A stretch of 64,000 bases of DNA from an uncultured bacterium (lineage in GTDB: Bacteria > Zixibacteria > MSB-5A5 > CAIYYT01): contig CAVSCK010000004.1 in the NCBI GenBank assembly GCA_963726455.1, positions 992,001 through 1,056,000 of the forward strand, written 5' to 3'. The notes below the pieces were generated by a model. That model did not search any database. It saw only the letters and a program-made list of their open reading frames with translations, and was not told the DNA's origin. A program made the translations under genes and the position numbers. This document shows, piece by piece, positions 18,652-62,372 of this stretch. Position 1 is the stretch's first letter. Each line of letters starts with the position of its first letter.

Positions 18652-18705
18652 GATGCCCTCCCGAGTTAGTTGGCCCGGTCAAGAGGAGAGATTTAATGTG
18701 TGAGT

Positions 18706-18733
18706 AAGATAGCGATAATAAATGGCATGTCAA
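18706..18733 (-). promoter_or_regulatory. sigma70 promoter of the first SBBP gene
   Basis: TTGACA-N16-TATCTT; near-identical copy at 21595-21622. Confidence 0.65.
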
Positions 18734-18789
18734 GAAGATTTGCGCGCTCACACCCGGTGGCAGTCGCGCGGGGAGACAGCTGAGATGCG

Positions 18790-19070: not shown

Positions 19071-19092
19071 AGCAACAAAGCAATTAATTCAT

Positions 19093-38732: not shown

Positions 38733-38955
38733 GTTTTCTCCTTCCGTGTGCAATCGGCTGTGGCGGGACGCGGCGCAAACGCCAATTCCATTGCCAGTTG
38801 GCACCTATCGTCGGCCGCCTGCAAGGTGTTGTTAGTTTCGCAACGCATCGCTCAGGCGGTGCCGTCGCGTCTGTCGGAATCGAGTTCCGGCAGTTTTTGA
38901 CAACTGATACAGAAACTGTTACGTCAGTTAGCTAGATTATCCACAATGAATTCTG

Positions 38956-40412: not shown

Positions 40413-40873
40413 GTACGAGTGACCTCCATGTATGTACTATTTATCGGCCGGCCAGCCCGATTTGCGCACTCGACGTGCCGCACTGTCACTAAGACGTCGA
40501 CTACCGACCGGTGCGAGTTTGCTTGACAAGAAATATAACCTATGATGGAAGTTGACGAACGGATTTTCTGTCGGCACTCAAAATTGGGCCGGCGGCATGT
40601 CACCATACCGCCGGTTTCCTACCCCCGCCTCCGTAACGCCCCCGGACGGACTTTTGAGGTTATTCAGCCAGTCGCGCTGAGGTTCCAATCATCGCAACCG
40701 CTTTCAGCCAGAGTAAAAGCAATCCGTGTGCCCGACGTGACATGCAGGCAGAAACGCACCTAATTCACGTTTGGATCGACGGTTTTGATTCCTTAAATGT
40801 GAAGCTTAATCAGGGATGTCGTAAACCTGCCACAAATGCGGTGTCTGCTTGTGGCAAAAATGCGTCAAATGAG

Positions 40874-44986: not shown

Positions 44987-47531
44987 CTACTTGCACGCCC
45001 CACAGGGAGCGGGGCCGCCTGCGAAGATATATTGAATCAGATAGACCACGTCTGAGATATCAACAGACCCATCGCAGTTGGCGTCGCCGGCTGCAATCGG
45101 ATTCGGAGCGGGTCCACCGCTGAAGATGTACTGAATTAAGAAGACAGCGTCAGAGATGTCGATGGCGCCGTCACCGTTGGCGTCGCCGCAAATGTAGGAA
45201 GGCACGACCTCGACATCGAGAATCGTGAACGATATCGGGTCCACCTTGGCGCCGTTGTCCCCGCACATCCTGGTGTGAGTAACACCGAAGAGTCTGGTGC
45301 CCGGTACTTCCGTACTGATACTCAGGTAGTCAATCTGAAGATTCGAAACACCTTGGGCCGCCCAAGTCCACCGGACGCCGTTGGGTGAGGCCGTGAAGTC
45401 ATAGTCGGCTGACGCGACCACACTTGCGGGTTTGCCAGTAGTTGAACCCTTGAAGCCGGTCGGGTAGACGCCCTTGGGGGTCTCCACGATATAGCCGAGG
45501 CCAGTGGTGCCGGCGACGATGCGCGAGTATACTTGCGAGCCGTTGTTAAAGGCCTTGATGGTAGAGGTGCCCGCAGCCGAGGCAACCGCCAGGTTCCAGT
45601 TGTTGGCAGCGGCTTTGGTCATGGAAATACGCATACTGAGCGAGTCCGGGTGAGTAGGCGTGGCGAAGAAGAACTCCGTGCCGAGTGACGCGCTCACCGG
45701 CAGAGCGCCGATTGGGTCGGGGTTTGCGATCGTAATGGACCATATACCGTCATCTTTGTCTGCTTGTGCCGCTACGCCGTCGGAGCCACTGGGACCGATG
45801 TTGCCAACGACCAATGTCGTCTCGACCGGCGTAACGGTGGCGTTGCCGAGTGGGGTTACCATAGCATCACCGTAGCCGAAGGAGCAGGTCTCGGAAGCGA
45901 TCGTCAGGGAGTCCATTTGTTGCGCGTAGATTCCGACACTGCTCAGACCTGTGCAACTGACGTCGATGTTCGTGCTGATACTCAGGTAGTCAATTTGAAG
46001 ATTCGAAACGCTGTGCCCCGCCCACGTCCAGCGGACGCCGTTGGGTGAAGCGGTGAAGTCGTAATCTGATGATGCGACTACACTCGCGGGCTTGCCGCTT
46101 GTACTACCCTTGAAGCCGACCGGGTAGATGCCTTTGGCGGTCTCGACGACATACCCGAGACCGGTGGCGCCGCCGGCAGAGGTCGCATAGACCTGAGTGC
46201 CGTTATTGAAGGCTTTCACACTGCAAGCGGCCGCACTCGACTGAACCGCCAGATTCCAGGTGTTGGCAGCGGCTTTGGTTTGGGATATGGACATGGTGAA
46301 AATTCGGCCTGTGATCGGAATGGGGAAGCTGAATTCAGTTTCCAGTGCCGCACCCGCCGGCAATATATCGCCCTGATCAGGATTCCGTAACTCTCCGCGC
46401 CAGACGATAGTAGACGGCGGGCTGGAGATAGCATCGGGGATGTCTACAGTAACCCCGTCGGGAGTCATGTCGGCGGTGAAGCGGGTGACAGTCAACTGGC
46501 CCCCGCTCACGCCAAGGCAGGTCGTCCCGGCAGAGACATGTTCCAAGCCAAAGATGTTCACAGTATCCGGCCGCGGTGAAGGAATTGGGTTACACGGGCC
46601 GGGCACTGGATAGCCGCCGTACGGGACGAAGGCGCTAAGGCCGTACGTGAAGTAGTTTTGATAGACTTTGATATCCATCGTGTCAATAATGCCGTCACCA
46701 TTCAGGTTGCAGTTATAAATGACGGCAGGGACCGGGCCGCAACCATTGATAAAGGCTGCAAGGTAGGACAAATCAGCGACCGTCAGGCCAATGCCATTGT
46801 TGTCGGCATCGGCGTTGGCGTAACAGATCGGGCTGCATAGATTGGCCTTTATGAGAAAGTTGTAATCGGGTCCGGCGTCATCGGCAAAGCGGTACCAGAG
46901 ACCTCCAGCGTAATAGCAGGAGCGACCGTAGTCGGTGGTGCCGCTGTCACTAAGGATTGACTCCCAGTCAATTGTCCCGCTGGTAGAGATTCCGATATGA
47001 AAATCAGCGGAGAAGACCAGTTGATCTGCTGCAAACGAGACCACGGTAGGAGTGGGGTACTTATTGTATGAACCGGGGGGCAATTTCCGCGAGGAAAGAA
47101 GTGACCCCGGAAGTCCGAAATTATCCGAATAGATGGAGATCTTCACCGTGTCATTACCCCATGCACCGTCCCCGTGATCATAGAAATAAACTGTGGCGGT
47201 CTTTCAGTGTGTCCTGCGAGATCGGGGAAAAGCGCATAGAGAGTGACGTCATTGCGCCGGTCGGTATCGGGAAATAGAACGCCGGATTACCTGCGTAACT
47301 CAGAGTCGAGCAGGGAAATGATGCGGCGCCCAGAGCCGAACTGAGCGGCGATCCTTTGCCCACCTGTTCGAACATGCCCCCTGGCTGGGGTGCGGATGGC
47401 GCGCTACCTCCGAAGATGCCGGAAGAGAGCATTAGACTGACCACCAGCACAATCGGGATGAAAACCGAATTCCTTTTTGTTGTTCCCTGGATTACTGAGA
47501 CCTGTGGGCCCGCGCCTTCTCGCCTTTTCAT
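44987..47531 (-). CDS. Large secreted protein with internal ~120-aa duplication and two dockerin-like domains; apparent indel at ~47202
   Basis: ATG 47531 after GGAGG; removing one base joins QDTLK to TATVYFYDHGDGAWGNDTVKISIY; duplicated GFKGSTxGKPASVVASxDYDFTASPNGVRWTW. Confidence 0.75.
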
Positions 47532-47929: not shown

Positions 47930-47947
47930 AAAGCCGGTGAAGGGACT
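47930..47947. repeat. att core (left junction)
   Basis: AAAGCCGGTGAAGGGACT, identical to 62244-62261 (tRNA-Thr 3' end). Confidence 0.92.
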
Positions 47948-48026
47948 GCACACATTAATGCACTTTCAATTCCCCTGTCGATCAAAATAGTTTCGAAAAG
48001 GCGAATAGCGTAGTATCGTCGCGCTG

Positions 48027-48572
48027 ATGATAGTGCGAACACGACAGCGACCGCAAAATGAGCCTGAGCGGCCGTGGATACTGGCTACTCACAAAGGCGA
48101 TTACGGAAAGTTGCTTCTCGCAGCGCGGCCATTCCAGAAGTCACTTTGTATAGTCCGGCCCGCCATCAAGAGGACGTCACCAAGAATTTCCTATGAGCCG
48201 CTCTATTTCGATTATGTCTTCCTGAGAGCATTGTCGGGCAGCCTGTTTGTCACGATCAAACACCTTCCGGTAAAGGTAGTCTGCTTGGGCGACAAGACTC
48301 TGTCGATCACACAGGCGGAAATGGATAAGATCACTGAGATTACTCGGACTCTCGCCTATCAAGCCGCTCACCCACCGGGGGCGCAAGAATTTGTACAGGA
48401 ACACAAGGGCAAGCAGGTCACCATCACCGGCGGCTCGGCGTGCGGAATGTCCGGTATCGTCGATTCTGAGGCCAGCACGCGGGACGTGTTTGTCAGGATC
48501 GCGGGCCTGCGAATACGGGTGCCGATGGACAGGTTGGATGTTGAGACTGTTGGCGTAACGTCTTCCCCTTGA
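48027..48572 (+). CDS. NusG paralogue (NGN plus KOW) antitermination factor
   Basis: EPLYFDYVFLR (cf. PLFPGYVFV) and KOW GKQVTITGGSACGMSGIV. Confidence 0.7.
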   Translation: MIVRTRQRPQNEPERPWILATHKGDYGKLLLAARPFQKSLCIVRPAIKRTSPRISYEPLYFDYVFLRALSGSLFVTIKHLPVKVVCLGDKTLSITQAEMDKITEITRTLAYQAAHPPGAQEFVQEHKGKQVTITGGSACGMSGIVDSEASTRDVFVRIAGLRIRVPMDRLDVETVGVTSSP

Positions 48573-49016
48573 GCCTTCTGCCGCTTCTCTACGATTATGC
48601 CCTTATTGATGTACCCGTTGTTTCTGAACGATTCTTCGCCTTTTTAGGTGTCAACTTTGTCAAATTTGCGATACGCTTGTCTCTGTTACTTCTCTGCTTA
48701 TCAGTGCTCATGTCGAATTATCCGGGGCGTCCGGCAGTTGTCCGATGGAATCGGACGACTTACACAAATTCCCCGCGAATCATTGTTAATTCGTTGTTCT
48801 CAATGCCTTCCTGAAGGCGGCATTTTCCCCACCAAAACAACAGCATAGCATTGACATTTATCTCTCCTAGCCTGATATTGAGGTCACGTTCACGAAGTAG
48901 AGCACAAATCTAATTGCAGTCTGGAAGCTGATCACGTCCAGGCGCAACTCCTCTGAGTGCGCAGAGTGTCCTGCTGGAACCTCAGCCGCAAAGACCGAAG
49001 GGAGACAATAAAAATC

Positions 49017-49562
49017 ATGTTGGGAAAGATACTGATTGCGGCGGTATTGACGTTTTGGCTGCCAGCCGTCGGCGGGAATCTCACAGTCACGGTGGATACT
49101 GGCATGGCCTTGAACGGCGGCTTATCCAGCCTAAACTTTCATAGCCGACTCAGCGTGTTGAAGATCGTAATTAATGATGATGCTTGCCCTGCCCAATTGA
49201 CAGAAGCGGGCCTGTGGCCGAACAACAATAAGGTTGACTTTCTGTTCTCGACCACCGGCAAACTAACTTCACTGGATAGCATCGATGCTGTTGACATCAC
49301 ATTCCTCGCCTATGATTATTTTGACCGTGCTATACTGAGATTCGCGACGCCAGAAGCATTCTCCCTGTCGCCCGGTAAGGAGATGGATATTGGCAAGCTA
49401 ATGGGGCAAGTCGTCAACGAACGTCAAAGAAGACTATTATTCAAGTCTGTCACCTTTGTTTCTGCAATCAGAAGAAAGGACGGAAGCCTTTGGTTCGCAG
49501 ACGAATCAGCAATCATTGCGCTCGTCAAATCGCTGAATCTCGAATTTCCAACGCAAAACTAA
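49017..49562 (+). CDS. Secreted hypothetical protein
   Basis: Signal peptide MLGKILIAAVLTFWLPAVG; upstream TTGACA promoter at 48851. Confidence 0.65.
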   Translation: MLGKILIAAVLTFWLPAVGGNLTVTVDTGMALNGGLSSLNFHSRLSVLKIVINDDACPAQLTEAGLWPNNNKVDFLFSTTGKLTSLDSIDAVDITFLAYDYFDRAILRFATPEAFSLSPGKEMDIGKLMGQVVNERQRRLLFKSVTFVSAIRRKDGSLWFADESAIIALVKSLNLEFPTQN

Positions 49563-49578
49563 AATTGGAGAATCAATC

Positions 49579-49959
49579 ATGTTCAAGAGATTTTCGCTGA
49601 TCAGTCTTGTCGCAATTCTGTCATTGTTGTTCGCCTGCACCGGCAAACAAGGGCCGACGGGGCCGCAAGGTGATAAGGGCGATCCGGGCGATCCGGGGAC
49701 GGGAACTCGAATTGTCTATCAAAGTACCGCACCCGCAAACAGCCAGCAGTTTGTCGTGATGATCCCAGAGATTGACACCCACGATATGCCGTCAGTCACC
49801 GCGTATACCGCCACGACAACTTATCCGAACTCTTGGTTTCCAATTCCGTTGTATGTTTCTGGCGGGCCGGACTTGGGCGCATGTTTCATCGTTGAAACCG
49901 GAAAGGTTACGCTCGTGAATTGCAGCGGCCTTCTCTACAAGATTGTCATTGTGATCTGA
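49579..49959 (+). CDS. Lipoprotein with short collagen-like repeat
   Basis: Lipobox LLFAC, then GKQGPTGPQGDKGDPGDPG. Confidence 0.8.
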   Translation: MFKRFSLISLVAILSLLFACTGKQGPTGPQGDKGDPGDPGTGTRIVYQSTAPANSQQFVVMIPEIDTHDMPSVTAYTATTTYPNSWFPIPLYVSGGPDLGACFIVETGKVTLVNCSGLLYKIVIVI

Positions 49960-50108
49960 TGCGCGTTTGCCGGTGATCCTGGAGGTCAATACTGACTTGA
50001 CGATGGAAATGAGTTGCCCCTTGCCCGGCGGAAGACTCTGAAAATAAATAAAGAAAACTAAAGGTTTTTAGTTGCGTCGCCGATGACATTTGCGTATATT
50101 GGGTGAGA

Positions 50109-50291
50109 ATGAAAACAGGCACAACCGCGAAATCAGATCGGCAGCTTATCAACTTCGAGATTGAACCAGAGCTGAAGGCACGTCTTGAAACTCAGGCCAA
50201 GAGGGAGCATCGCACTCTCAGCGGTCTAGTAAAGCATATCATTCTGTCGTACTTGGAGTCTCGGGAAAGCGAGAAGAAACGTAGCAGATAA
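50109..50291 (+). CDS. Ribbon-helix-helix (Arc/CopG-like) DNA-binding protein
   Basis: LINFEIEPELKARLETQAKREHRTLSGLVKHII. Confidence 0.75.
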   Translation: MKTGTTAKSDRQLINFEIEPELKARLETQAKREHRTLSGLVKHIILSYLESRESEKKRSR

Positions 50292-50379
50292 GTAAACGGC
50301 GATGCAGACCAGGCACGGTCTACACCGCCTTTGAGAGGCTCAAATGAGCCAGTACACAGTATAACTTGAGAGGTATCAA

Positions 50380-50757
50380 ATGACAACCCGCAAATCTACA
50401 ATCCCCGCCAACGGTCACAAAGACTCGAACCCGTTCCTTACCGATGAAGAGCAGAGACAAGCTATCAGTGGCCTCCAACTCGCTTCATTTGGTCTCGAAG
50501 AGGCAGCGAAATTTGAGAAGCTGGTGGAAGACAGGAGGCGCAATCCCAACTGGCAAAAGGAATTCAAACCCGCTCCCACCCAGCCGTCAAATAGAGAGCT
50601 CCGCAAGTTTCTCAGAGGGAATGAGAGACGTCGTTTCGACGGGGCTATCTCGAAGATGGATTCAGCGATAAGACTGATGAGGGGCAGCAGCGGTCTCCTG
50701 TCGCAATACAGGGAACTCGCCACTAAGAGAATGAATCAGGCCGGAGGCGCGCTGTGA
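50380..50757 (+). CDS. Hypothetical protein
   Basis: 125 aa, RBS GAGG, overlaps the next start (GTGA). Confidence 0.6.
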   Translation: MTTRKSTIPANGHKDSNPFLTDEEQRQAISGLQLASFGLEEAAKFEKLVEDRRRNPNWQKEFKPAPTQPSNRELRKFLRGNERRRFDGAISKMDSAIRLMRGSSGLLSQYRELATKRMNQAGGAL

Positions 50758-51695
50758 ATTCAAGTATTACTCAGACCACTCTGCCGAGCACTAACAGTGT
50801 CGGCTTTCAGCAGCTTATCGATGCTTTTCTGTCCCGCCGAAGTCGAGAGACTCGGCGGGCTTACTCAAAGGACTTGGCCGACTTCGCGACGTATCTTGAA
50901 GTCGCTGACAATGAAACTGCCCTACTGCGGCTCGTGTCCAGTGGCCAAGGACAAGCGAATTCGATGGTCATGGGTTACAAGACGGCGCTGATCGAAGGCG
51001 GCAAATCGCCGAACACGGTCAACCGCCGACTGGCAACCTTGCGCTCGGCCGTCAAGTTAGCAATCACGCTCGGACTTGTGAACTGGACAATAAGCATCGA
51101 AAACGAGCGAGTCGAAGCCTATCGGGACACGACCGGGCCAGGCATTGAGGGATTCAGGAAACTACTCAGGTATTCGGCTCTTTCGGCACCGCCCTTTATG
51201 GGATCTCGGAATACCGCAATTCTGCGGTTATTGTTCGACCTGGCGCTTCGGCGCGGAGAAGTTGCCCAACTCGACTTGGCCGACTTGGACATCGACAACG
51301 GCACTATTCAGGTCATTGGCAAAGGTCGGAGCCAGAAAGCCACTCTGACACTGCCAGCGGCAACATGCGGGGCTTTGAGAGCTTGGCTCATGGTCAGAGG
51401 CGCCCAACCGGGGCCGCTGTTTAGGAACTTTGACCGGGCGCGCAAAGGCAACCGGCTGACCGACGGTGGAATTTACCGGATGGTGCGAAACCTGGGGCGC
51501 AAGATCGGTTTGGTAGTCCGACCTCACGGCTTGCGCCATGCCGCGATCACAAAGGCGCTTGACCTCACCGGCGGCAACGTCCGTAGCGTGCAAAAGTTCT
51601 CCCGACACCGGAACATGCAGACCTTAATGGTCTATGACGACAACAGACAGAATCTCGCCGGTACAGTCTCAAATCTGATTGCCGAGGCGGTTTAA
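50754..51695 (+). CDS. Tyrosine recombinase (XerC/D-like resolvase)
   Basis: LRRGE, GKGR, RPHGLRH, SRHRN...VYD catalytic motifs. Confidence 0.9.
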   Translation: MNSSITQTTLPSTNSVGFQQLIDAFLSRRSRETRRAYSKDLADFATYLEVADNETALLRLVSSGQGQANSMVMGYKTALIEGGKSPNTVNRRLATLRSAVKLAITLGLVNWTISIENERVEAYRDTTGPGIEGFRKLLRYSALSAPPFMGSRNTAILRLLFDLALRRGEVAQLDLADLDIDNGTIQVIGKGRSQKATLTLPAATCGALRAWLMVRGAQPGPLFRNFDRARKGNRLTDGGIYRMVRNLGRKIGLVVRPHGLRHAAITKALDLTGGNVRSVQKFSRHRNMQTLMVYDDNRQNLAGTVSNLIAEAV

Positions 51696-51760
51696 ATTCG
51701 GTAGAATATGAGCACGGAAACCATCATTATCAGGCTCATATTCAGCCGGGGAAGTGAACT

Positions 51761-51994
51761 ATGAGTAGCGTTTACATGACCACAGCACAAGCCGCCGAGC
51801 GCCTGCAATACAGTTATAGCCACTTCGTGAGGGTCTTATTGCCAAAGTTGCCGGGCGTCATCAGAAATGGCAAGAATGGCGCTTATCGAATTCCCGTCGC
51901 GTCGTTGGTCGAATTTGAACGAAAGCATTTGGTCACTCACAACCCGGATTCGAAACCAGCAGCCTTTCGAGGGGGCACTGAGCAGAAGGAATAA
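51761..51994 (+). CDS. Excisionase-like HTH protein (possible recombination directionality factor)
   Basis: YMTTAQAAERL...GAYRIP. Confidence 0.7.
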   Translation: MSSVYMTTAQAAERLQYSYSHFVRVLLPKLPGVIRNGKNGAYRIPVASLVEFERKHLVTHNPDSKPAAFRGGTEQKE

Positions 51995-52020
51995 TCAAGA
52001 GACATTCAAGTGGCTCAATA

Positions 52021-53400
52021 TTAGCTCCCAGCATTGGGTGACCTGAGAATTCTCTCCAGCTTCCGCCTGCTGATCCCCAACGCCCTCATAGTCGCACTCT
52101 TGTTGCCGTTATTCTTTTCCATGACAGCCGTCACAAAACGCTGTTCGAGCGTCACGATCGGCCAATTAGTATCAGCAACAAAACGGTGTGTGGGAGCGAT
52201 CTTATTGGGCTCGGCGATGGTTTGAGTCCCTTCAAAATTCATTGCCCACTTGGAACCGTATCTTCGAAAGAAATCGAGGGGACTTTCATCCGGGATATAA
52301 GTATCGAGCGGATTCTCGTGAATCTTTCGTTTGGCCGCTTTGATGAGGAACTTCTCTGCGAGCAGACGATAATCCTTCTCGCCAAAAGCGAGTATTGTTT
52401 CTCTACTCCACGCCCACTTCTTGAGTGTGCTCCGGTCAATGAACGAAAGTTGCCATCGGAAGGGATTCAGTCCAGCGAAACTTATGTCGGCCGCAAGCCA
52501 TCTTTCGGAGAAATACTCCCCCCCGAAGTAAGTGTCGGCATCGAGAAACCAACTGTAATTTCCTCGCCAGTGCTTCCACATAGGATGAGACCAGCGATGC
52601 CTATCGATACAGATATATCTCAGTACTTCATTCTTCAACTGCCGCACGTTGCCCTCCCATTCGTTCATCAGAAGTATGTGGACCAGAGCAGCCGGAAATA
52701 GGTCTATTCTTGCGATCTTCTCGTCGGCGCAAAATTCGTCGCAGAAATGCAGGAATAACTCTACCGCGTCAAGTCTTCTGTTTCTAAGGGGTTCCACTTC
52801 TATCTTCAATGGAAATCGCCAATACAGATCAGGACGGATTCCATATCTCCAGTCGTCTTCATTATTTCCTGTGGTGACACCACCACCGGCGTTCTTGACC
52901 GGCCGATTTGTTGCCGCAATGATTCGGCAATCAGACTTCTTGATTTCTGGAGACCCGAGTTTGTGGTATTCGCCCGACTCTATGAAACGGAGGATTTCTC
53001 CCTGAACCGACGAATCCAATCCGCCTATTTCATCGATAAAAAGAGTGCCTCCATTCGCCTCGAATACGAGGCCTTCCCTGTTCTCGGCACCAGTGTAAGC
53101 CCCTTTCTTGCATCCGAAAATCTGGCCGTGCGCCAACTGAGGATTTCCCTGAAAGTCGTACGAATTTACCGGCAGAATTCTTCCGCCTCGATTTCGGTCA
53201 CTCTTCTCATGCAAAAGATGCGCGACAACTTCTTTGCCAACACCCGACTCCCCCACGATCAGCACCGGCTCCCGCCGCGGAGCGTAAAGCTCGACATCGC
53301 CGCGCACTTGAGTCGTCGGTCCACTGCTACCGATCATCTTCTGTCTGGATACTTGGGTTTTCTCGGGTTGAACCGTCACTTCATTATGTGCGTTTTGCAT
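52021..53400 (-). CDS. sigma54 enhancer-binding protein lacking an N-terminal sensor domain
   Basis: MIGSS at residue ~22, GESGVGKE, GAYTGA, LFIDEIG, WEGNVRQL, long aromatic insert, Fis-type HTH GNKSATMRALGISRRKL. Confidence 0.85.
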   Translation of the reverse strand: MQNAHNEVTVQPEKTQVSRQKMIGSSGPTTQVRGDVELYAPRREPVLIVGESGVGKEVVAHLLHEKSDRNRGGRILPVNSYDFQGNPQLAHGQIFGCKKGAYTGAENREGLVFEANGGTLFIDEIGGLDSSVQGEILRFIESGEYHKLGSPEIKKSDCRIIAATNRPVKNAGGGVTTGNNEDDWRYGIRPDLYWRFPLKIEVEPLRNRRLDAVELFLHFCDEFCADEKIARIDLFPAALVHILLMNEWEGNVRQLKNEVLRYICIDRHRWSHPMWKHWRGNYSWFLDADTYFGGEYFSERWLAADISFAGLNPFRWQLSFIDRSTLKKWAWSRETILAFGEKDYRLLAEKFLIKAAKRKIHENPLDTYIPDESPLDFFRRYGSKWAMNFEGTQTIAEPNKIAPTHRFVADTNWPIVTLEQRFVTAVMEKNNGNKSATMRALGISRRKLERILRSPNAGS

Positions 53401-53500
53401 AATATGGTTCCTTTAGCTTAAGCATTTCGCTAAGGCCAAGCTAACACAAGTTAATAATAACGCAATCACTTTCTTCCAGACATCAGCATAATCCTTTGCA

Positions 53501-53547
53501 CATCAAGCAGTTATTTACGCGCCTTCCGGTTTGGCTCGGCTCTTGCT
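53501..53547 (+). promoter_or_regulatory. IHF-like site plus sigma54 -24/-12 promoter of the rightward satellite operon
   Basis: CATCAAGCAGTTA (53501-53513) and TGGCTCG-GCTC-TTGCT (53532-53547). Confidence 0.7.
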
Positions 53548-53583
53548 ATACATACGGGAATGAAGCGATCCAAAGGAGATAAG

Positions 53584-53796
53584 ATGAATCAGTTTCGCTT
53601 GAAAAGAGTGCGGCTGGGGTTGACCCAGTACGACCTGTGGAGGGAGACCGGCATACCGCAATCTCGGATTTCGCTACTCGAACGCGGCTTCTACGAATTG
53701 AAGCCAGACGAAGACGAGAGGCTGAGATCGGTGTTGAAGATGCGCCCTCGGACTCCCAAAAATGACAAAACATCACTTGGCGCAACGGCTGCGTGA
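53584..53796 (+). CDS. XRE-family HTH protein
   Basis: RVRLGLTQYDLWRETGIPQSRISLLERG; RBS AAGGAG. Confidence 0.85.
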   Translation: MNQFRLKRVRLGLTQYDLWRETGIPQSRISLLERGFYELKPDEDERLRSVLKMRPRTPKNDKTSLGATAA

Positions 53797-54002
53797 ACTT
53801 GAGGAACCCAGTGCCGCGACAAAGGCCACAGACGAAAGTGAATGTCAACCTCGGGACACCTAACCCAGACGGCCTTGCTCTGCTTGTCAACTTCGTTTCG
53901 ACCCGACTCGTGGTATCGATTCTCCAAAGTAACCAAGAACACAACCAAGAGGGCGACACCGTTGGGAGCCCTTCACCGGAAAGGAGTTCACAACGTGTGT
54001 AG
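53793..54002 (+). CDS. Hypothetical protein
   Basis: 69 aa, GTGA overlap with the XRE gene. Confidence 0.45.
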   Translation: MNLRNPVPRQRPQTKVNVNLGTPNPDGLALLVNFVSTRLVVSILQSNQEHNQEGDTVGSPSPERSSQRV

Positions 54003-54213
54003 CAAACTCGATTCGTTCAAAGAGTTTGTCCTCCGAGGTCACAAGTTAATCAGCGAGGGACAGGCCGACAAAGCTTTGTCTCTTGCATTCTGTCTACTCG
54101 ACAGCTTGGGCAATGTGGCGTTTCGCGAACAGGAACCTAAGAGAGCGTGCGTTTCCAAAAGCGTGCAGCCTTCGAATTCGAAACGAATTAACCAAATACA
54201 AAGGAAGAGGTAA
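53995..54213 (+). CDS. Hypothetical protein
   Basis: GTG after AAGGAG; 72 aa. Confidence 0.5.
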   Translation: MCSKLDSFKEFVLRGHKLISEGQADKALSLAFCLLDSLGNVAFREQEPKRACVSKSVQPSNSKRINQIQRKR

Positions 54214-54217
54214 AACG

Positions 54218-54667
54218 ATGACAGGCGAGATCAAGGTACTCGGACAAAAGCCAGTTCAAGTCAGCTTGGCAGGACAGGAATTCACCATCTATCCGGCGAC
54301 ACACTATCGGATGAATCAGATCCTTGAGTGCGCCGCAACGGCGAGAGCAAATTCGGAAGCCATGCGCAAAGCAGAGGAGACCGAAGATGCGGCAATCAAA
54401 GCGCGGGGCGAAGAAATCCCCATCAGACCACTCAAGTCGACGCCGGTCGATTACGGAATTCTCCGGCTTATCTGCAAGGCTCCAGACACTTTCGAGAACA
54501 GCAAATTGGTTGAAGGCAAGGTTCCCGCTGTACTGACCAACGAATTCTGGAGCCAGCAAGTCCAGACGGCGGAAATAGCGGGCTTATTCGAGGTCTTTGT
54601 GTCCCTGCTTGACATCGACAAGCTCATTAAGAACGCTCTCTCACTCGTGGGACAGACCCGTGTGTAG
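54218..54667 (+). CDS. Tail assembly chaperone-like protein
   Basis: ATG after GAGG; VQVSLAGQEFTIYP N-terminus; immediately upstream of the tape measure gene. Confidence 0.55.
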   Translation: MTGEIKVLGQKPVQVSLAGQEFTIYPATHYRMNQILECAATARANSEAMRKAEETEDAAIKARGEEIPIRPLKSTPVDYGILRLICKAPDTFENSKLVEGKVPAVLTNEFWSQQVQTAEIAGLFEVFVSLLDIDKLIKNALSLVGQTRV

Positions 54668-54715
54668 CCCCATGACAGAAGATGACTCGGATTTTCCAAA
54701 AAACTTGGAGCGTAA

Positions 54716-57504
54716 ATGCCCGGTGTAGTTGACATCCTGAAATATGTGTTGGAGCTGGACTCCGGCCAACTCAAAGCCGAAGCGAAACAATCCGACACAA
54801 TAATCAACCAGTTGTCAGGCACAATCAAGGGCGCGCTTGTTGGCGCATTGGGTGCCGCCGCTGTTGGTTTCGCTACGGTCAAGATCGGCGAATTTCTGAA
54901 AGATGCCACCCTGACGGCGGCACGTACCGAAGTGTTGGGAACTGTCTTGCATCAGGTCGGCAAGGTGGCGGGTGAATCAAGCGGATATCTTGACGGCTTA
55001 GCCGACAAGGTTGAGGCGCTAGGGGTCACTACCCAAGCAAGTCGCACTCTGCTTATTCGACTGATGCAGTCTCATCTTGACCTTGCCTATGCCGTGAAGA
55101 TTGCGACAGTTGCGCAAGACTTAGCCGTAGTCGCTGATCAGAATTCCTCTGAGGCCGCCGAAGGAATTACGATAGCAATTGCCAAAACCGATGTTGAGCT
55201 GTTGCGGCAATATGGTATCGTCATTAACGCAGAGCGACTATTCAAACAGTACGCCCAGACAATCAATAAATCAGCGTCCGAACTTTCCGATCTCGACCGT
55301 CGCACGGCGATTGCTAACGAGGTATTTCGCCAAGGGGCTGCCTCCGCTGGTACTTACGAAGCGGCAATGGCTGATGTCGGCAAGCAGATAACATCAATGC
55401 CTCGATACGTCGAGGAGATGAAGAACGCTCTCGGAAAGGGGTTTCTCCCCCTGCTCGCTGACATTGTGCATTTACTTCGCGACGCCACAGTCGGCCTTAC
55501 CGATTTTCTGACACCGGCGACAGAACTAAAAACAGCCGAACTAAACAAACTACAGTCAGAATTTAGCAAGATCACTGGAATCTTACCTGACTTGGTAAAG
55601 GAATTTGTAAATCTATCCACCAAGACAAGACTCACCAACACCGAACAAGATCGGCTCCTTACCATTCAGCAACAGATCGCCGCGCTCGCTCCCGGCTATA
55701 TCACAGCACTCAACGATGAGGGTATGGCGCTCGACCTTAACGCCAAATCCTTAGCCAACTACACCGGATTGCGCAAGGAACAGATTGAAACTATTAAGAA
55801 TGATCTGATTTCAGCACTGTTAGCGGAGGAGGAGGCACAAGATCGCGCCAACAAGAAGAACCTTGCTGCGATTGAGAATTTCAAGAAGATAGCCGCTTCG
55901 AACAAAGCTGCTGGTGTTAAGGTTGGCTATGGCATCCCAGGCCAAATCAATGAGATAGTGATCGAATTGTCGAAGGGCATCCAGCGCTCACTTGAATTAC
56001 AACAGCGCATCGCGGCACTTGGAAGCGAGGGGAGGATGCTGCCAAGAAAATTGAGAAGATACCAGAAGACCTGAAAATCGAGATCAAATTCGGCAGCGAG
56101 AACTTGTCCTCCGCCGAGGAGCAGATAAAGCGCATTCAGTCATTAGTCGAGGCGGTTCAATCCCAATTCGGCGACCAAGGGATTACGCCCGATAGCGACA
56201 AGTTGATTGCGGCATTGCGGTCACTTATCAATTCGGAAGCGGCGATGCTTTCGACCGATGCCCAGAGGATTATCATTGACGCACTCAACAAGGCGCGGGA
56301 CAACCAACGCAGTGATGCTAAGTCGAAATCCGATCAGGAGCGATATTACAAGGACATACAGGAGAGCGAAGCCAATGCAGCGAAAGATCGCCTCAATGAC
56401 ATAGAAAAGGAAAAGCGGGCGCGTGTAAATGCAGCCGTCGATGTCGCTGACGCCCTTGGTTATGCCGCTACCAATTTCTTTGGTCTCTTCGATGAAGGTA
56501 TTGCCCGAATCGCCTCGAATCTCAGTAACGCGATCAGTGGCGCAATTTCTGGATTCTCACAAGGCGGAGTTGCCGGGATTGCCGGAGCTATCGGCTCGAT
56601 TCTTTCAGGATTCGCTTCCCTTTTCAGCGGTGGAGCGGACAAGATTGTCGTGTCGCAATACGAATTGATCGAAGCCATCGAAAATTGGGAGTCTACCATT
56701 GAGACATTGACGCCAAAAGAAAAAACCGCGCAACAAGAGATGGCCGAACTCGGTATTGAGGCGGCCAGCAGATTAATGGGCAACGGTTGGGACTGGAATC
56801 AGATTGTGGCACTGCTCAGACCCCTATTTGAATCTGTCGGGTTATCCATTCCACAAGGCATTACATATGAGCAATTTCTTGGTTGGGGAAATGACATCAT
56901 CGCGGACATTGGCGCATCAAATGCACAAACGACCGCTGAATTGAAAGCGGATAATGCCGCGTCGCGCAGGGAACTTGTTCTGAGTCAAAAGACGGGAACT
57001 GACGCGCTTGAGACCATCGCCGATCTTGATAAACTCTATGCCTTGAGCCCCGAGGAATTGCATGCTCTCTATGAAGAAACGATGGCGAAGTTTGGTGACA
57101 AAATGTCAGATAGCGACAGAATCAACACACAGGCATTGATTAACGATTACCACAGAGGAGAGGCTGAGCGAGCGCAGAGCGGGGCCGGAGCCGAGCAGAC
57201 TCAGGCGTCCCGCTCGATTCAGAAAATAACCGAACGCCAGGTCGACTCGCTCATTTCCGCGTTGTCCACCATCGACCTGCACATAACCGAGGGCATACAG
57301 AAATTGCTCGATGGCATCCGCAACACGACTAACAGGACAACCATGAATGCGGCGGCGACTATCGAAGTGGCGGTAATCAACGCGGGTGTAATCAACACGG
57401 GGTCGATCAGAGTAGCGGGATCGATGAGTGGCAATAATGGCGCATCGGCGAATACGAAGCAATTACTTACTGTCGAATCACGCAGCCTAGGTAGGAGGGT
57501 GTAA
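54716..57504 (+). CDS. Tape measure protein (~930 aa), split by a 1-bp indel at ~56030
   Basis: TMP domain AARTEVLG...AQDLAVVADQNSSEA...GTYEAAM...GKQITSMPRY; one extra G in GAGGGGAGG gives GSEGEDAAKKIEKIPEDL, in frame with 56104-57504. Confidence 0.85.
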
Positions 57505-57556
57505 GGCATGTCATCGGAAGCAAACACAGCGTGTGCGAGAATCACCGGAGTTGACT

Positions 57557-57985
57557 GTGTCTAACCGCGCAAAAATGACACCTGAAAAAAGAGAGACGTT
57601 CCTCGCTACGCTTGAGACTACGGGAGGGCAGATAACAAAGGCATGTAAGGCCTGTGCTGTTTCGCGCGACGTAATCTATCGACTTCGCAAAAGTGATGAA
57701 CAATTCGGGAAAGACTTCGAAGCCGCACTCGACAAAGGCATTGACCTGCTCGAAGCGGAATGCAAGCGGCGCGCATTTGAAGGCGTTCCCAAACCCGTGT
57801 TCTATAAAGGCAAAGAGTGCGGGATCATTCAGGAATACTCCGATACACTTGCGATCTTCCTGATGAAGGCTCACCGGTCGAAGTACAAAGAGAAATTCCT
57901 ACTGACTGGTGAAGGCGGCGGCGCAGTCAAAGTCCTCGTTGAATATGTGAACAAACCCAATGGAGTGTATCGTGAAGTGTGTTGA
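57557..57985 (+). CDS. terS: Terminase small subunit
   Basis: HTH FLATLETTGGQITKACKACAVSRDVIYRLRK plus RRAFEGVPKPVFYKG...YSDTLAIFLMKAH. Confidence 0.75.
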   Translation: MSNRAKMTPEKRETFLATLETTGGQITKACKACAVSRDVIYRLRKSDEQFGKDFEAALDKGIDLLEAECKRRAFEGVPKPVFYKGKECGIIQEYSDTLAIFLMKAHRSKYKEKFLLTGEGGGAVKVLVEYVNKPNGVYREVC

Positions 57986-58397
57986 CCTCAAGACAGTTTT
58001 CGGACGGAGATACAAGATTGCTGCTGATCCCTCGGCCGGGGCCCGCAACGTCGATCCGTGGTACTGGACTATCCCCTGCCGGCGCGGCGAAATCTATCCC
58101 TATGGCGGCGACTTCCTTTGTGCCTCGGTACGAAATGGGGCGGTTTCCAAGTCGATGCGCTCCTGGCCCGAGCTGACGGTTTTGCAGGACGCCGACGACG
58201 AGACAGTCTTCAAGTTTCACGTCAACAACTTCGAAAAGGTAGCTCAGGCCGTGGGTGCCAAGAAACGGCGGCGAATGTCAGTCGAGACCATGAAGAAAAT
58301 TGGTGCAGACACGGCGTACGTGACGCCAAACGGGGGTGAATTTCAACGATCTCCCCAAGGGGCGAGTGATTTGACACGGGGGGCAGTTCGTGTATGA
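57960..58397 (+). CDS. Hypothetical protein
   Basis: 145 aa, overlaps both neighbours; DPWYWTIPCRRGEIYPYGG. Confidence 0.65.
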   Translation: MECIVKCVDLKTVFGRRYKIAADPSAGARNVDPWYWTIPCRRGEIYPYGGDFLCASVRNGAVSKSMRSWPELTVLQDADDETVFKFHVNNFEKVAQAVGAKKRRRMSVETMKKIGADTAYVTPNGGEFQRSPQGASDLTRGAVRV

Positions 58398-59022
58398 TTT
58401 AGACACCCTAAAGGCCGGCGTCACCATCGAGAACATCCTTGACGATTTCGGGATTGCCCACCGCCATCACAGGGCAGCCTGTCCCGTTCACCGTGGCGAC
58501 AATAGGTCTGCTTTCAGCTTCAACGATGAGGCTTTCTACTGCCACACCCAAGGATGCAAGGGCGGCGTTATCGACCTGGTCATGGCTCTGGCCGGGACTG
58601 ATTTCAGGGGCGCGCTGGACTATCTGGCTCGCAAGAAGGGAATCGCGAATGATTTCGGAATCACCGGGACGACTCAGTTTACAAGGAGTCTGCCTGACAA
58701 TTCTGATCCATTCAGGGAAGAAAGGAAACGGCTCTCACCAAAAGACTATGTGGAGTTGCTTTGTATGGCCGACGATCTTAACCGCGCTGAATCCGACCTC
58801 GCCGAATGCAGGAGTAACATTGGCACACTGACCGCCCAATTATCCCAACTTATCCACCTCAAGAGGCGGAAACAGATTGCCAAATCGCTGTACTACTTGA
58901 ACACACAGAAGATCGACGACAACCGGCTCGCACTGTTCGACGAGCAGGAAGCACAACTCAACTACAAGGTCAAAGAGATAAAGCGGCAAATCAGCGAGTT
59001 CAGGAAGAAGGTAAGGCAATGA
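58390..59022 (+). CDS. CHC2 zinc-finger (DnaG-type zinc-binding domain) protein without TOPRIM
   Basis: ACPVHRGDN...FYCHTQGCKGGVIDLV, then coiled coil. Confidence 0.8.
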   Translation: MYDLDTLKAGVTIENILDDFGIAHRHHRAACPVHRGDNRSAFSFNDEAFYCHTQGCKGGVIDLVMALAGTDFRGALDYLARKKGIANDFGITGTTQFTRSLPDNSDPFREERKRLSPKDYVELLCMADDLNRAESDLAECRSNIGTLTAQLSQLIHLKRRKQIAKSLYYLNTQKIDDNRLALFDEQEAQLNYKVKEIKRQISEFRKKVRQ

Positions 59023-60263
59023 TTAGCGACTGCGAAATTGACGCCGAGTTTTGCCAAGAGACCGACGCTGACATCGACCTGACGATACCCGAATCCGGCT
59101 TTCTCCTGAAATATTACAACCTAATCTGCCCTATCACAGAGGCGCCTGAAGTCTACCATCTGTTTATGGGAATGTCTTTGATCGCCGGTGTCCTCGGGCG
59201 CAAAGTGTTTCTCGACTGGACGGCTTACAAGATTTACCCGAACCTGTATATCATCCTGGTCGGCGCGTCTTCAGCAATCAAGAAATCGACGTCAATCAAC
59301 CAAGCCCGACCGTTTCTTAACGCCGTCGATCCCAACCTGATCTTTCCAAATGAATTCTCGAATGAAGCTTTCTTGGAGCTCCTTGTCACTCAGCCGCAAG
59401 GTTCGCTGTTCTGGGATGAATTCGGCGGCGTGCTCGCGACATTCGAGCGTTCGTACATGTCCGGTACCAAAGAAATGCTGACCTCGATGTTTGACTGTCC
59501 GAGTGACTATCGACGGTTGCTCAAAGGCAACGCCAAGAGCAAAGAGTCGGGCAAGGTCGTTATCATCCGGGAACCGTACATCAATATCGCCACTACTTCA
59601 ACCCTTGAGTGGCTCGTCAATCGGATCAAGGAACAGGATATCAAGTCGGGTTTCCTGGCTCGATTTGTCTACGTGCCCGGTAAAGAGCCGAGCAAACGAC
59701 TTTCGCGCCCGCCCAAATTAGATCAGAAGTTGAGGTCCGAAATCATCATGGAGTTGAAGGCTATTCGAGAGATTTCGGGCGAAGCGGAACTCACTGACGA
59801 CGCGTTTCTGTACTATGACACCTGGTACAACGGTGTCTTTGATCAGATACAGAAGGGCGACAATCGCGACAAGCTCTCCCCTTTCTTTAGCCGGCTACTG
59901 GTCTACGCTCTCAAATTCGCCCTGATCTACCAAGTGTCCGAAGATCACTCGCTGACAATTCAGGAACACAACATGATCAGGGCGTGTCAGTTGGTCGACT
60001 TCCTCAAGCGCAACATCAAAGACATGGTCGAAAATGAACTGGTTTTTGGTGTGGACGCCATTCAGTTGAAGAGAGTGTTGGAAGTCATCAAGTCAGAGGG
60101 TGCGATTGAACGGAGCAAACTTTTCACGCGAGTGAACTATCGAAAAGACATTCTCAACCGACTCATCGATACCCTTCTTGAGCAGGAACAGATTTCGGTT
60201 TCTCGGGAACAGTGGCACAAGGGGAAGAAGCCGAGAACGATTTACACCTATAACGGTAAGTGA
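59019..60263 (+). CDS. DUF3987 (YfjI-like) P-loop helicase-like protein
   Basis: NLYIILVGASSAIKKST, WDEFG, SGFLARF; C-terminal winged helix. Confidence 0.8.
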   Translation: MISDCEIDAEFCQETDADIDLTIPESGFLLKYYNLICPITEAPEVYHLFMGMSLIAGVLGRKVFLDWTAYKIYPNLYIILVGASSAIKKSTSINQARPFLNAVDPNLIFPNEFSNEAFLELLVTQPQGSLFWDEFGGVLATFERSYMSGTKEMLTSMFDCPSDYRRLLKGNAKSKESGKVVIIREPYINIATTSTLEWLVNRIKEQDIKSGFLARFVYVPGKEPSKRLSRPPKLDQKLRSEIIMELKAIREISGEAELTDDAFLYYDTWYNGVFDQIQKGDNRDKLSPFFSRLLVYALKFALIYQVSEDHSLTIQEHNMIRACQLVDFLKRNIKDMVENELVFGVDAIQLKRVLEVIKSEGAIERSKLFTRVNYRKDILNRLIDTLLEQEQISVSREQWHKGKKPRTIYTYNGK

Positions 60264-60293
60264 CAACCACTTAGGGCGCTTGAAAGGAAATCA

Positions 60294-60528
60294 AAACTTT
60301 GGTAAATTTAGATAAACTTCGCGAAATGGTATGTTATGCGCAGACAATGAGTTACCATATAACTTCTAAACTACTAACTACTACTACTACTACTACAGGG
60401 GGCGCTGACTCACCTGAAATCAAAGGGAAAAAGAGGGAGAGATGCAAGAAGTTGTCGAAGTTTAGAAGTTTACACCTAAACCCTTTTATCTAATTACGAT
60501 ACCTATTCGCGAACATTTGCGAAGTTTA
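60294..60528. other. Putative replication origin: convergent AAACTTC/GAAGTTT iterons around a (CTA)n tract
   Basis: Heptamers at 60294, 60314, 60360 and inverted at 60448, 60457, 60465, 60521. Confidence 0.55.
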
Positions 60529-60626
60529 CGACTGCTTCTGTTGCCCACTTGGACTCGGGGAAACAAGTTGCCAAAGACCTTTAGGGCGCATACTGTGACA
60601 CCGACTACCGAAAGGAATAACAGACG

Positions 60627-62372
60627 ATGAAGTGCGCCGTCTATGCCCGGTACAGCTCCGACATGCAGAAACAGACCAGCATCGAAGATCAGGTGCGGGA
60701 GTGTCGGCAGTTCATCGAGCACAGACAGTGGGAAGTTGCCGACGGCCGGGTGTACTCTGACTACGCCATCAGTGGAGCTGATATCAACCGCACGGGTTAC
60801 CAGGCACTCAAGGCAGACGCATACAAGAAACTGTTTGCCTGCATCGTAGTTGACGACTTATCGCGACTCGGAAGGGACGCCGGAGAAGCAATCCAAATCT
60901 ACGGGGAATTGACTGCCTATGGAGTTAACATCGTCTCTGTGTCGGATGGAATCGAAACGGCTTCATCTTCTTCGAAGATTCCCTACTACTTCAAGAGCAT
61001 TGCCAACGAACTCTTTCTGGATGAACTGAAGGCCAAGATCGTTCGCGGTCTCAAAGGTCAAGTCTCTCGCGGTTACTCTGCCGGCGGCCGGACCTACGGC
61101 TACTACTCCGAGCCGGAACTTGTTCCGGGTGGCGGCGCTGACAAATTCGGCAGACCTCGGCGGCACGGGGTTAAGATCAAAATCAATGAGAAAGAAGCGG
61201 AAGTCGTGCGAATGATCTTCCGACTCCGCGCCGATGGTCTTGGACAACGTGCGATTGCCACTCGCCTGAATGAACTGAAAATCCCTTCCCCATTTGCACA
61301 CGTCGACCACTTTAGCGGAACTTGGTCGCCCGACACGGTACGCCACATGTTGCAACAGCGGAGATATATCGGCGACTGGACTTGGAACAAGAGCCGGTCT
61401 CTCAAGAAGAATCCTCTCGGTAAGCGAATTGTCAGAGAGAAGACAGTCGACCAATGGATTGAACACGTCGACGAATCATTGCGGATCATTCATCAAGATT
61501 TGTGGGACGCTGTACTGGCGACATTTGCAGACAAAGAAACACGATTGCGGTTCACGCCGGGGCCGAAAGGTGTCTATCTCTTGGGTGGGCTGCTTAAGTG
61601 TTCTCGCTGCGGATCGTCACTTGTCGGAATGAAATCGAAAGGATGGACTGCCTATGTGTGCAGCGGCAACAGAAGTAAAGGCAAGGTGTACTGTCCAGCC
61701 TCACACCGACTACCGCTCATCGAGGCTGACTCCGGAGTTCTGCAAGGCTGCAAAGAAATTCTGTTTTCTGATGAAACACTCGCATTGATTTCACGCCAAG
61801 TCAACGAAGCGTTGGCGACTATCGAGAAGCAGACTCCCAAGCGGCGAGATCGCTTAGCGAGAAGACTCAACACTCTTGACACGTCCATTGAGCGCCTACT
61901 TGATTTTGCGGAGACTGAACCGAGTAGTCCTGCTCTTGGTGAACGCCTACGGACTCTGGAAGCGGAAAAGCGCACTGTCCAGGCCGAACTTGATGCACTC
62001 AAAACCGAAACCCGTAGGACTAACCGACTGTCCGAAGAGTTCATCAAGGCCAGTCTGCAAGGGCTCCTACCTGCCGTGAGCGCTGACGAAAGCAGCCGCC
62101 AGGAGCTGAAATTCATCCTCAGCAAGATGTTTCCGGAAAAATTGTCTGTCACGATTCGCGAAAAAAATGGCTATGTTGAGTTTGGCGTGCTTGGTAACCT
62201 AATGCCCCTCAATATCCTTCCGAAGGCTTCTGCGTTAATGTATAAAGCCGGTGAAGGGACTCGAACCCCCGACCAGCTGATTACAAATCAGCTACTCTAC
62301 CAACTGAGTTACACCGGCTTAAGAAATCTGCCTGCCCGTTTCAAGTACCGTCACTCCGACGCGCAGGATTAG
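60627..62372 (+). CDS. Large serine recombinase (integrase); C-terminus reads through att and antisense to tRNA-Thr
   Basis: YARYSS, DDLSRLGRD, recombinase domain, zinc ribbon CSRCGS...YVC. Confidence 0.95.
   Translation: MKCAVYARYSSDMQKQTSIEDQVRECRQFIEHRQWEVADGRVYSDYAISGADINRTGYQALKADAYKKLFACIVVDDLSRLGRDAGEAIQIYGELTAYGVNIVSVSDGIETASSSSKIPYYFKSIANELFLDELKAKIVRGLKGQVSRGYSAGGRTYGYYSEPELVPGGGADKFGRPRRHGVKIKINEKEAEVVRMIFRLRADGLGQRAIATRLNELKIPSPFAHVDHFSGTWSPDTVRHMLQQRRYIGDWTWNKSRSLKKNPLGKRIVREKTVDQWIEHVDESLRIIHQDLWDAVLATFADKETRLRFTPGPKGVYLLGGLLKCSRCGSSLVGMKSKGWTAYVCSGNRSKGKVYCPASHRLPLIEADSGVLQGCKEILFSDETLALISRQVNEALATIEKQTPKRRDRLARRLNTLDTSIERLLDFAETEPSSPALGERLRTLEAEKRTVQAELDALKTETRRTNRLSEEFIKASLQGLLPAVSADESSRQELKFILSKMFPEKLSVTIREKNGYVEFGVLGNLMPLNILPKASALMYKAGEGTRTPDQLITNQLLYQLSYTGLRNLPARFKYRHSDAQD
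62244..62261. repeat. att core (right junction)
   Basis: AAAGCCGGTGAAGGGACT, identical to 47930-47947. Confidence 0.92.
62246..62318 (-). tRNA. tRNA-Thr(TGT)
   Basis: GCCGGTGTAACTCAGTTGGTAGAGTAGCTGATTTGTAATCAGCTGGTCGGGGGTTCGAGTCCCTTCACCGGCT; cloverleaf, anticodon TGT, CCA not encoded. Confidence 0.97.

Follow-up and report, generated by a model that had tools for sequence, protein, structure and literature searches.

A 64-kb stretch of contig CAVSCK010000004.1 from an uncultured member of the Zixibacteria (64,000 nucleotides, hereafter the window) carries a 14.3-kb island on which an activator gene and the promoter that it faces probably form a sigma-54-dependent switch. The activator is a bacterial enhancer-binding protein (bEBP) lacking an N-terminal sensor, and its gene is divergent from a near-consensus -24/-12 promoter that heads an operon. 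With moderate confidence, we consider that transcription of the operon depends on sigma-54, that the neighbouring bEBP opens its promoter from about 115-145 bp upstream, and that the off state is intrinsic to the sigma-54 holoenzyme. Because the operon holds the packaging and replication genes of the island, the bEBP and its promoter would be the main on-switch. A first-pass annotation of this DNA had proposed that the element is kept off by sigma-54 logic, and the presence of an intact sensor-less bEBP divergent to a near-consensus promoter heading an operon makes this logic the most likely mode of control. That proposal needs one qualification: activator-based induction has already been described for AlpA (PMC6092414).

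The activator was analyzed at the level of its domains and conserved residues. Pfam assigned residues 22-171 to Sigma54_activat (PF00158, 131.5 bits for a cut-off of 20.2), residues 206-268 to AAA_lid_14 and residues 418-450 to the Fis-type helix-turn-helix (HTH) family HTH_8 (23.4 bits for a cut-off of 22). The sigma-54-contacting loop is GAYTGA (residues 100-105), a form that is common among the bEBP matches retrieved. Every column that is invariant across 45 aligned bEBPs is kept, including G50/G53/G55/K56, of which K56 is the Walker A lysine, T103/G104/A105, D123, R159, T164/N165 and G250/N251/R253. By all these features the bEBP is intact, which agrees with the leftward AAA+ bEBP with a GAYTGA loop described in the first-pass annotation. 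The same annotation had reported that the protein has no receiver or GAF domain. This is also the case: position 53400 is the first start codon past the upstream stop and the reading frame cannot extend 5', and as the AAA+ profile opens at residue 22 there is no room for a receiver, a GAF domain or any other N-terminal sensor. The named bEBP equivalogs in NCBIfam align to the AAA+ core alone and score far under their cut-offs. Amongst them the PspF equivalog TIGR02974 reached 140.3 bits for a cut-off of 443.55, indicating that the protein is not a PspF equivalog. Matches in the PDB (35 bEBP sequences, down to 9.8e-39) were restricted to approximately residues 20-267 and included the PspF chain 2vii_A (2.1e-29, residues 20-263 of the bEBP), and the RtcR_PspF models of PADLOC matched the AAA+ part at 3.4e-53 over profile positions 154-399 of 481.

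The rightward -24/-12 motif that had been reported to face the bEBP gene was found as TGGCTCGGCTCTTGCT at 53532-53547. It fits the consensus TGGCACG-N4-TTGCW at 11 of the 12 specified positions and with canonical GG/GC spacing. The site lies in the 183-bp gap between positions 53401 and 53583, divergent from the bEBP gene, and its -12 GC is 38 bp upstream of the ATG of the XRE gene at 53584. Three sites with at most one mismatch from the consensus were observed in the window for 0.59 expected, and the chance of such a site on the right strand of this gap is about 8e-4 (0.59 x 183/128000). When GG and GC were fixed and at least 11 of the 12 positions had to agree, two sites were obtained in the window, TGGCTCGGCTCTTGCT and a site at 11795 that is inside an opposite-strand open reading frame (ORF). 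The core TGGC-N7-TTGC occurs 7 times for 2.95 expected, and comparison with the ORF lists indicated that TGGCTCGGCTCTTGCT is the only one of the seven that is both intergenic and followed by a gene in the same orientation. The search with fixed GG and GC and at least 11 of 12 positions was also run, as a positive control, on the neighbourhoods of 80 generic bEBPs (829,538 bp). It gave 32 sites distributed over 25 of the 80 loci, for a mean of 4.4 sites in mononucleotide shuffles, that is an enrichment of about 7-fold in the real sequence. No sigma-70-like promoter was called on either strand of 53401-53583.

Upstream of TGGCTCGGCTCTTGCT a candidate enhancer occupies roughly positions -145 to -114 relative to the inferred start site, which is a typical enhancer distance. 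It overlaps the leader and the ribosome-binding site of the bEBP gene, and its exact TTAGC-N11-GCTAA dyad occurs once in the window. The bEBP may bind at 53413-53444. Sigma-54 promoters have essentially no basal activity without an ATPase activator. We propose that the promoter at 53532-53547 would drive the XRE gene, four genes of no assigned family, terS, one further gene of this kind, the primase-like gene and the DUF3987 gene, and that this operon would serve as the induction programme of the island. The sigma-54 holoenzyme alone could not open the promoter, which would account for the off state and would make the operon dependent on rpoN. The divergently encoded bEBP would bind the enhancer upstream (candidate TTAGC-N11-GCTAA-N6-GCTAA cluster), form an AAA+ ring, touch sigma-54 via its GAYTGA loop and open the promoter with ATP. 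Because the bEBP is without an N-terminal sensor, the decision between on and off would be limited to three ways: the orphan 152-aa domain described below, a trans-acting inhibitor, or the amount of the bEBP.

The first-pass annotation had described an aromatic-rich insert of about 150 aa ahead of the HTH, and this description holds. The linker between the lid and the HTH measures 152 aa for a median of 43 aa among 116 bEBPs (5 of 121 proteins, without the lid motif used for delimiting the linker, were excluded), and it ranks first of the 116 for its content in aromatic residues (18.4%, median 4%) as well as in Trp (6.6%). We searched for relatives of this insert in several ways. A word-based search with residues 262-418 gave 154 candidates, none of them at E <= 1e-3. 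Searching the PDB with phmmer at E up to 10 gave no match, and at the same limit Pfam returned DUF6531 alone, at 0.77, which is not meaningful. Pairwise comparisons with the tails of P0002 and P0013, two bEBPs presented below, were not significant (E = 0.089 and 1.1, respectively). When 1.84 billion representatives were scanned in full with HMMER, a single match was obtained, the 142-aa fragment P0122, at 99% identity. This fragment begins at the equivalent of Met275, has two internal residue differences and diverges past approximately residue 410; it evidently represents this gene in a different data set. The insert has, at the sequence level, no detectable homologue. With so many aromatic residues it looks less like a spacer than like a folded domain. 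No other bEBP with a folded-looking domain between lid and HTH was present among the 116 compared proteins, and bEBPs are not known to have a folded-looking domain, or a sensor module, between their ATPase and DNA-binding domains. Linkers of 150-180 aa are also found in the receiver-less bEBPs P0002, P0013 and P0061 of the match list.

That the insert is the target of a helper-phage or stress factor, as the first-pass annotation had proposed, is speculative. A role of the insert in sensing is unsupported, as nothing in its sequence ties it to such a function and it has neither a homologue nor a family match. It is plausible, if short of probable, that the sigma-54/bEBP pair is real and the insert is a structural or oligomerisation spacer, with control exerted by the amount of the bEBP, for example through a helper-dependent promoter, or by a trans-acting inhibitor. 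PspA acts in trans on the sensor-less bEBP PspF, and HrpV on HrpS (PMC3105312), in agreement with the trans control noted in the first-pass annotation, and in Gram-negative phage-inducible chromosomal islands (PICIs) AlpA is controlled via its expression by the helper phage (PMC6092414). The long linkers of P0002, P0013 and P0061 are in line with this explanation, and the overlap between the candidate enhancer and the bEBP leader would allow autoregulation. The inhibitor could even be an early operon product acting in a feedback of the PspA or HrpV style. However, searches of the operon proteins, and of all island proteins in Pfam and PHROGs, revealed no PspA- or HrpV-like family, with several small ORFs left unassigned, the aromatic content of the insert looks folded and not spacer-like, and no promoter of the bEBP gene was found to examine.

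To return to the sigma-54-gated operon, its genes from 54213 to 60263 are at most 48 bp apart or overlap, without any terminator-like site in the gaps, and a 363-bp gap separates the DUF3987 gene from that of the serine recombinase (Table 1). The first-pass annotation had listed XRE, TerS, primase-like, helicase-like and integrase genes heading rightward, and each of them has family matches. TerS in particular matched 148 phage records, 122 of them with at least 80% query coverage, at about 35% identity. Two other labels, for a chaperone and a tape measure protein, fared less well. The chaperone is without any support in Pfam and PHROGs, and all matches behind the tape measure label of the 452-aa protein are sub-threshold (phrog_4211 at 6e-4, Pfam TMP_2 at 0.036, and tblastn alignments with tape-measure genes of phages that cover 20-29% of the query, at 2e-4 to 8e-4). 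The only sign of defence-type cargo on the island comes from the adjacent 466-aa protein, whose residues 8-205 align to profile positions 323-527 of 601 in LeoBC.

The island extends from about 47948 to 62243 between two 18-bp repeats, which have exactly two copies in the window at up to 3 mismatches for 0.04 expected, and its GC content is 51.2% for 55.1% in the host flank. Five core components have been defined for PICIs: an integrase, an alpA/merR/stl regulator, a primase-replicase, capsid morphogenesis and TerS (PMC10085698). The island has an integrase component (two recombinases), a primase-replicase (CHC2 and DUF3987) and TerS. For the regulator component we found only the HTH_17 protein at a sub-threshold 21.7 bits, the divergent regulator being the bEBP. 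No capsid-morphogenesis component was detected in Pfam and PHROGs searches, in which some ORFs had no family, nor were capsid, portal or large terminase genes. With its recombinases, HTH_17 protein, primase-like and DUF3987 proteins and TerS, the gene set resembles that of a PICI-like phage satellite, and the island would in that case depend on a helper.

Several features of the island ends are worth recording. The first gene at the left end encodes a NusG/UpxY-like antiterminator candidate that may provide a second, processivity-based layer of control. Two unrelated recombinases, a tyrosine and a large serine recombinase, are present within one pair of attachment (att) repeats, and the island may have been assembled from a left module (47948 to about 52000) and a right one (52021-62243). 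The serine recombinase ORF crosses the right att repeat (codons 540-545) and then the opposite-strand tRNA-Thr gene. In an excised circle the recombinase would be 566 aa long instead of 581 and its last 21 residues would be different, so that the integration state could alter the recombinase.

Table 1. Features of the island and of the prophage-like block, in window coordinates.
Feature	Position	Strand	Evidence or remark
Prophage-like structural block (portal, TerL, major head, tail-like)	1-15302	-	Runs off the left end of the window
Ig-domain tail-like protein	4995-5834	-	Prophage-like block
Major head protein	7321-8520	-	Prophage-like block; phrog_3922 1.3e-63
Virion protein	8525-8947	-	Prophage-like block
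Large terminase	12173-13504	-	Prophage-like block
Portal	14022-15302	-	Prophage-like block
Left 18-bp direct repeat (att) AAAGCCGGTGAAGGGACT	47930-47947	+	Exact copy of the tRNA-Thr 3' end
NusG/UpxY-like antiterminator candidate, 181 aa	48027-48572	+	First gene at the left end; NF033644 3.8e-7, 30.2 bits, under the 100-bit cut-off, weak
XerC/D-like tyrosine recombinase, 313 aa	50754-51695	+	Phage_integrase 73.3 bits; phrog_1 integrase 3.1e-29
Small HTH_17 protein (excisionase/AlpA class)	51761-51994	+	Convergent with the bEBP gene; PF12728 2.6e-4, 21.7 bits, under the 27-bit cut-off
bEBP, 459 aa: AAA+ sigma-54 activation domain, lid, aromatic-rich segment (about residues 266-417), Fis-type HTH	52021-53400	-	Pfam, NCBIfam, PDB, alignments
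Candidate enhancer: TTAGC-N11-GCTAA dyad and a third GCTAA 11 bp on, one helical turn	53413-53444		Inverted-repeat scan
Sigma-54-type -24/-12 promoter TGGCTCGGCTCTTGCT	53532-53547	+	GG at 53533-53534, GC at 53545-53546; inferred start site near 53558
XRE-family HTH, 70 aa, first operon gene	53584-53796	+	AAAGGAGA just upstream; HTH_3 24.6 bits, cut-off 23
Small ORF, 72 aa	53995-54213	+	No family match; start codon chosen from ribosome-binding site
Small ORF, 149 aa	54218-54667	+	No family match; start codon chosen from ribosome-binding site
452-aa protein, weakly tape-measure-like	54716-56074	+	Sub-threshold matches
466-aa protein	56104-57504	+	No phage match, sub-threshold family matches; PADLOC LeoBC 6e-6, partial
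TerS, 150 aa	57533-57985	+	phrog_4044 2.4e-35
145-aa ORF	57960-58397	+	No family match (Pfam, PHROGs)
CHC2 zinc-finger primase-like protein, 210 aa	58390-59022	+	Zn_ribbon_DnaG 30.2 bits, cut-off 24.9; several PHROG primase families
DUF3987 primase/helicase-type replication protein, 414 aa	59019-60263	+	49.3 bits; phrog_14296 4.9e-30; phrog_5311 (helicase) 7e-18
Large serine recombinase, 581 aa	60627-62372	+	phrog_95 1.1e-85
Right 18-bp repeat (62244-62261) in the 3' end of an intact tRNA-Thr(TGT) gene (62245-62319)	62244-62319	-	Rfam tRNA, 70.1 bits

It is unlikely that the sigma-54 module is real and the island is no helper-dependent satellite, being instead a decayed prophage or another integrative island on which the bEBP drives stress or anti-phage cargo. 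Such an island would fit with the lack of a detected capsid-morphogenesis gene and with the sub-threshold alpA-class regulator; the weakly tape-measure-like 452-aa protein would suit a prophage remnant, the 466-aa protein has its partial LeoBC match at 6e-6, and the two different recombinases suggest a composite history. On the other hand, TerS, the primase-like protein and DUF3987 are encoded in one tight co-directional string behind the promoter, the island has a length of 14.3 kb with intact att repeats and tRNA, and a candidate helper, the prophage-like block encoding portal, TerL and major head proteins, is about 33 kb away. We found no resemblance between the island proteins and those of this block. 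The more elaborate proposal of a satellite programme locked behind the sigma-54 promoter and opened when the Trp-rich domain senses either a protein of the helper phage or a signal specific to infection is in our opinion quite unlikely. That the -24/-12 match is fortuitous, with an unrecognised sigma-70-type promoter driving the operon and a bEBP that acts elsewhere or is inactive, is very unlikely: chance matches do occur, as the other 11/12 site inside an ORF at 11795 illustrates, the uncultivated host lineage may follow promoter conventions of its own and HTH_8 is marginal, but the probability of such a site in this 183-bp gap adjoining an intact bEBP gene is only about 8e-4, such sites are some 7-fold enriched around bEBP genes and the gap has no called sigma-70-like site.

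The closest whole-protein relative of the bEBP found in database searches is P0002, a 451-aa protein from a Zixibacteria metagenome-assembled genome (MAG) with 36% identity over residues 22-392. Like the island bEBP it has no N-terminal sensor (its Walker A is at about residue 34), a long tail and an HTH-like C-terminus. P0013 (519 aa) similarly has a long tail after the AAA+ lid and an HTH-like end, and differs by about 80 additional N-terminal residues. Both proteins share with the bEBP the (N/G)AYTGA loop and the LLM(N/S)(E/D)W-GNVR and DL(Y/W)-R motifs. A 3-sequence profile run on genome contigs found at least 594 relatives (at least 601 stretches), and the best 80 of them are all generic bEBPs with 33-41% identity, of which L026 and L045 alone align as far as residue 452. 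In phages, tblastn of the bEBP gave 63 records, none with at least 80% query coverage, and blastn of 52000-54300 gave no match. One phage record, L081, an 'UNVERIFIED' virome scaffold, was rejected because the match starts 177 codons into a 510-aa ORF located behind an 857-aa ORF and the protein is not sensor-less; by this organization it is probably a bacterial two-component pair. The search of plasmids gave 2566 records, again with none at 80% coverage or more.

The host flank contains a two-component pair (40874-44715, minus strand) made of an FG-GAP histidine kinase and an NtrC-type REC-AAA+-HTH bEBP, the top named relative of the latter being a Zixibacteria MAG protein with 63% identity. 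After this pair, a 460-bp intergenic region carries the -24/-12-like site GGGCACACGGATTGCT (40718-40733, minus strand) ahead of a gene for a 467-aa protein without family match, and a second, weaker -24/-12-like site, CGGCACGTCGAGTGCG, is found at 40465-40480. The pair and GGGCACACGGATTGCT look like a classical chromosomal sigma-54 unit. With an NtrC-type bEBP and a second -24/-12-like site in its chromosome, the host very likely has sigma-54. The flank also encodes large secreted-type proteins with dockerin type I domains (16150-21540, 37881-38804 and 44987-47146). Two dockerin proteins have DUF7948 and SBBP beta-propeller repeats and one has a plastocyanin-like domain; the 719-aa dockerin protein contains internal direct repeats of 300 and 84 nt.

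A number of observations weigh against a sigma-54 switch on this island, or against its being that of a satellite. The case rests on one instance. Searching with the bEBP alone in 185,579 species-representative genomes gave 32 pattern matches and no relative, and among the matches listed the 3-sequence profile returned generic bEBPs only. The full-length bEBP is missing from the listed database matches, though a host protein of the same window is listed, and the fragment P0122 suggests that another data set contains the same island with the gene frameshifted or broken, or else a poorer assembly. On the protein side, the HTH_8 match barely exceeds its cut-off and must be regarded as marginal. 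On the promoter side, the enhancer pattern was picked post hoc and without comparative support, no promoter was identified for the bEBP gene itself, and the rpoN gene is absent from the 64-kb window. IHF sites accompany many sigma-54 promoters but not all, and the IHF-like site of the first-pass annotation had to be abandoned: no exact WATCAANNNNTTR is present in 53401-53583 (the 4 exact copies in the window are all elsewhere), and with up to 2 mismatches the pattern matched 413 times in the window for 381 expected, that is at chance rate. Finally, satellite status is not established, as no capsid-remodelling gene was detected and the alpA/merR/stl-class regulator is sub-threshold.

If the sigma-54 switch is real, an element that uses it would need no repressor to stay very tightly off, but it would rely on the host rpoN. 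Satellites and prophages are normally silenced by repressors such as Stl and CI, or switched on by AlpA-like sigma-70-type activators. RteB of the conjugative transposon CTnDOT is reportedly an NtrC-like regulator, although a paper searched on this point contains no passage on NtrC or sigma-54. No satellite-like element with a divergent bEBP/sigma-54 node was found described in the literature searched, a scope that left subscription journals and preprint supplements outside. If confirmed, the switch would give phage satellites a third regulatory design and place them in a poorly known lineage, and it would provide a small activator, sensor-less and with a new domain to which a phage component might bind as ligand. 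Should both the satellite and the sensing domain be true, this would be, within the searches made, the first sigma-54-gated satellite, and its activator would be the first bEBP known to have its sensor module C-terminal to the ATPase and ahead of the DNA-binding domain. Should the island be decayed, or the insert have no sensing role, what remains would be a mobile island with a bEBP/sigma-54 pair of the ordinary divergent kind.

The arrangement as such is known. It is the classical layout of PspF in the phage-shock response of E. coli: PspF, like the island bEBP, is sensor-less and divergent from the sigma-54 promoter that it activates, with an enhancer overlapping pspF's own promoter. The island bEBP differs from PspF by its additional 152-aa orphan domain and by the absence of a detected PspA-like gene, and its targets are mobile-element genes whereas those of PspF are envelope-stress proteins. 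PspF has no cis-acting regulatory domains and is inhibited by PspA, and bEBPs of the PspF/HrpS type consist of AAA+ and HTH domains alone (PMC3105312), a definition from which the island bEBP departs by the 152-aa segment between its lid and its HTH. HrpR/HrpS of Pseudomonas syringae resembles the island bEBP in being sensor-less, in having a Tyr in its loop and in being encoded on a horizontally acquired island; the natural Tyr in the GAFTGA-type loop of HrpS is active, Y85F is a gain-of-function substitution, control is exerted in trans by HrpV/HrpG, and HrpRS can function with the sigma-54 of a foreign host (PMC3105312). HrpR and HrpS form a hetero-hexamer of AAA+ and HTH domains only, in contrast to the single island gene with its inserted domain and no known counterpart of HrpV/HrpG.

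There is also a precedent for an influence of prophage genes on a bEBP-dependent operon. In Salmonella, genes of the Gifsy-1 prophage reportedly decide the expression of the operon that depends on the bEBP RtcR (PMC9879122). RtcR differs from the island bEBP, which matches its AAA+ region alone, in having an N-terminal CARF-type sensor and in being a chromosomal regulator of RNA repair. The nearest item that we found in the literature is a preprint on the lytic-phage protein Htm, whose structure resembles that of bEBPs. In its gene content the island is closest to Gram-negative PICIs, which are likewise about 10-15 kb long and carry an integrase, a primase-replicase and TerS (PMC10085698). It differs from PICIs by its att-adjacent integrase, which is a serine recombinase, and by its Zixibacteria host. 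Gram-negative PICIs are induced by the element-encoded activator AlpA, and not through a master repressor, and AlpA expression is helper-dependent (PMC6092414). AlpA is a small sigma-70-type HTH activator, whereas the regulator of the island is an AAA+ sigma-54 activator; what is new here is the sigma-54/bEBP implementation, not activator-based induction as such.

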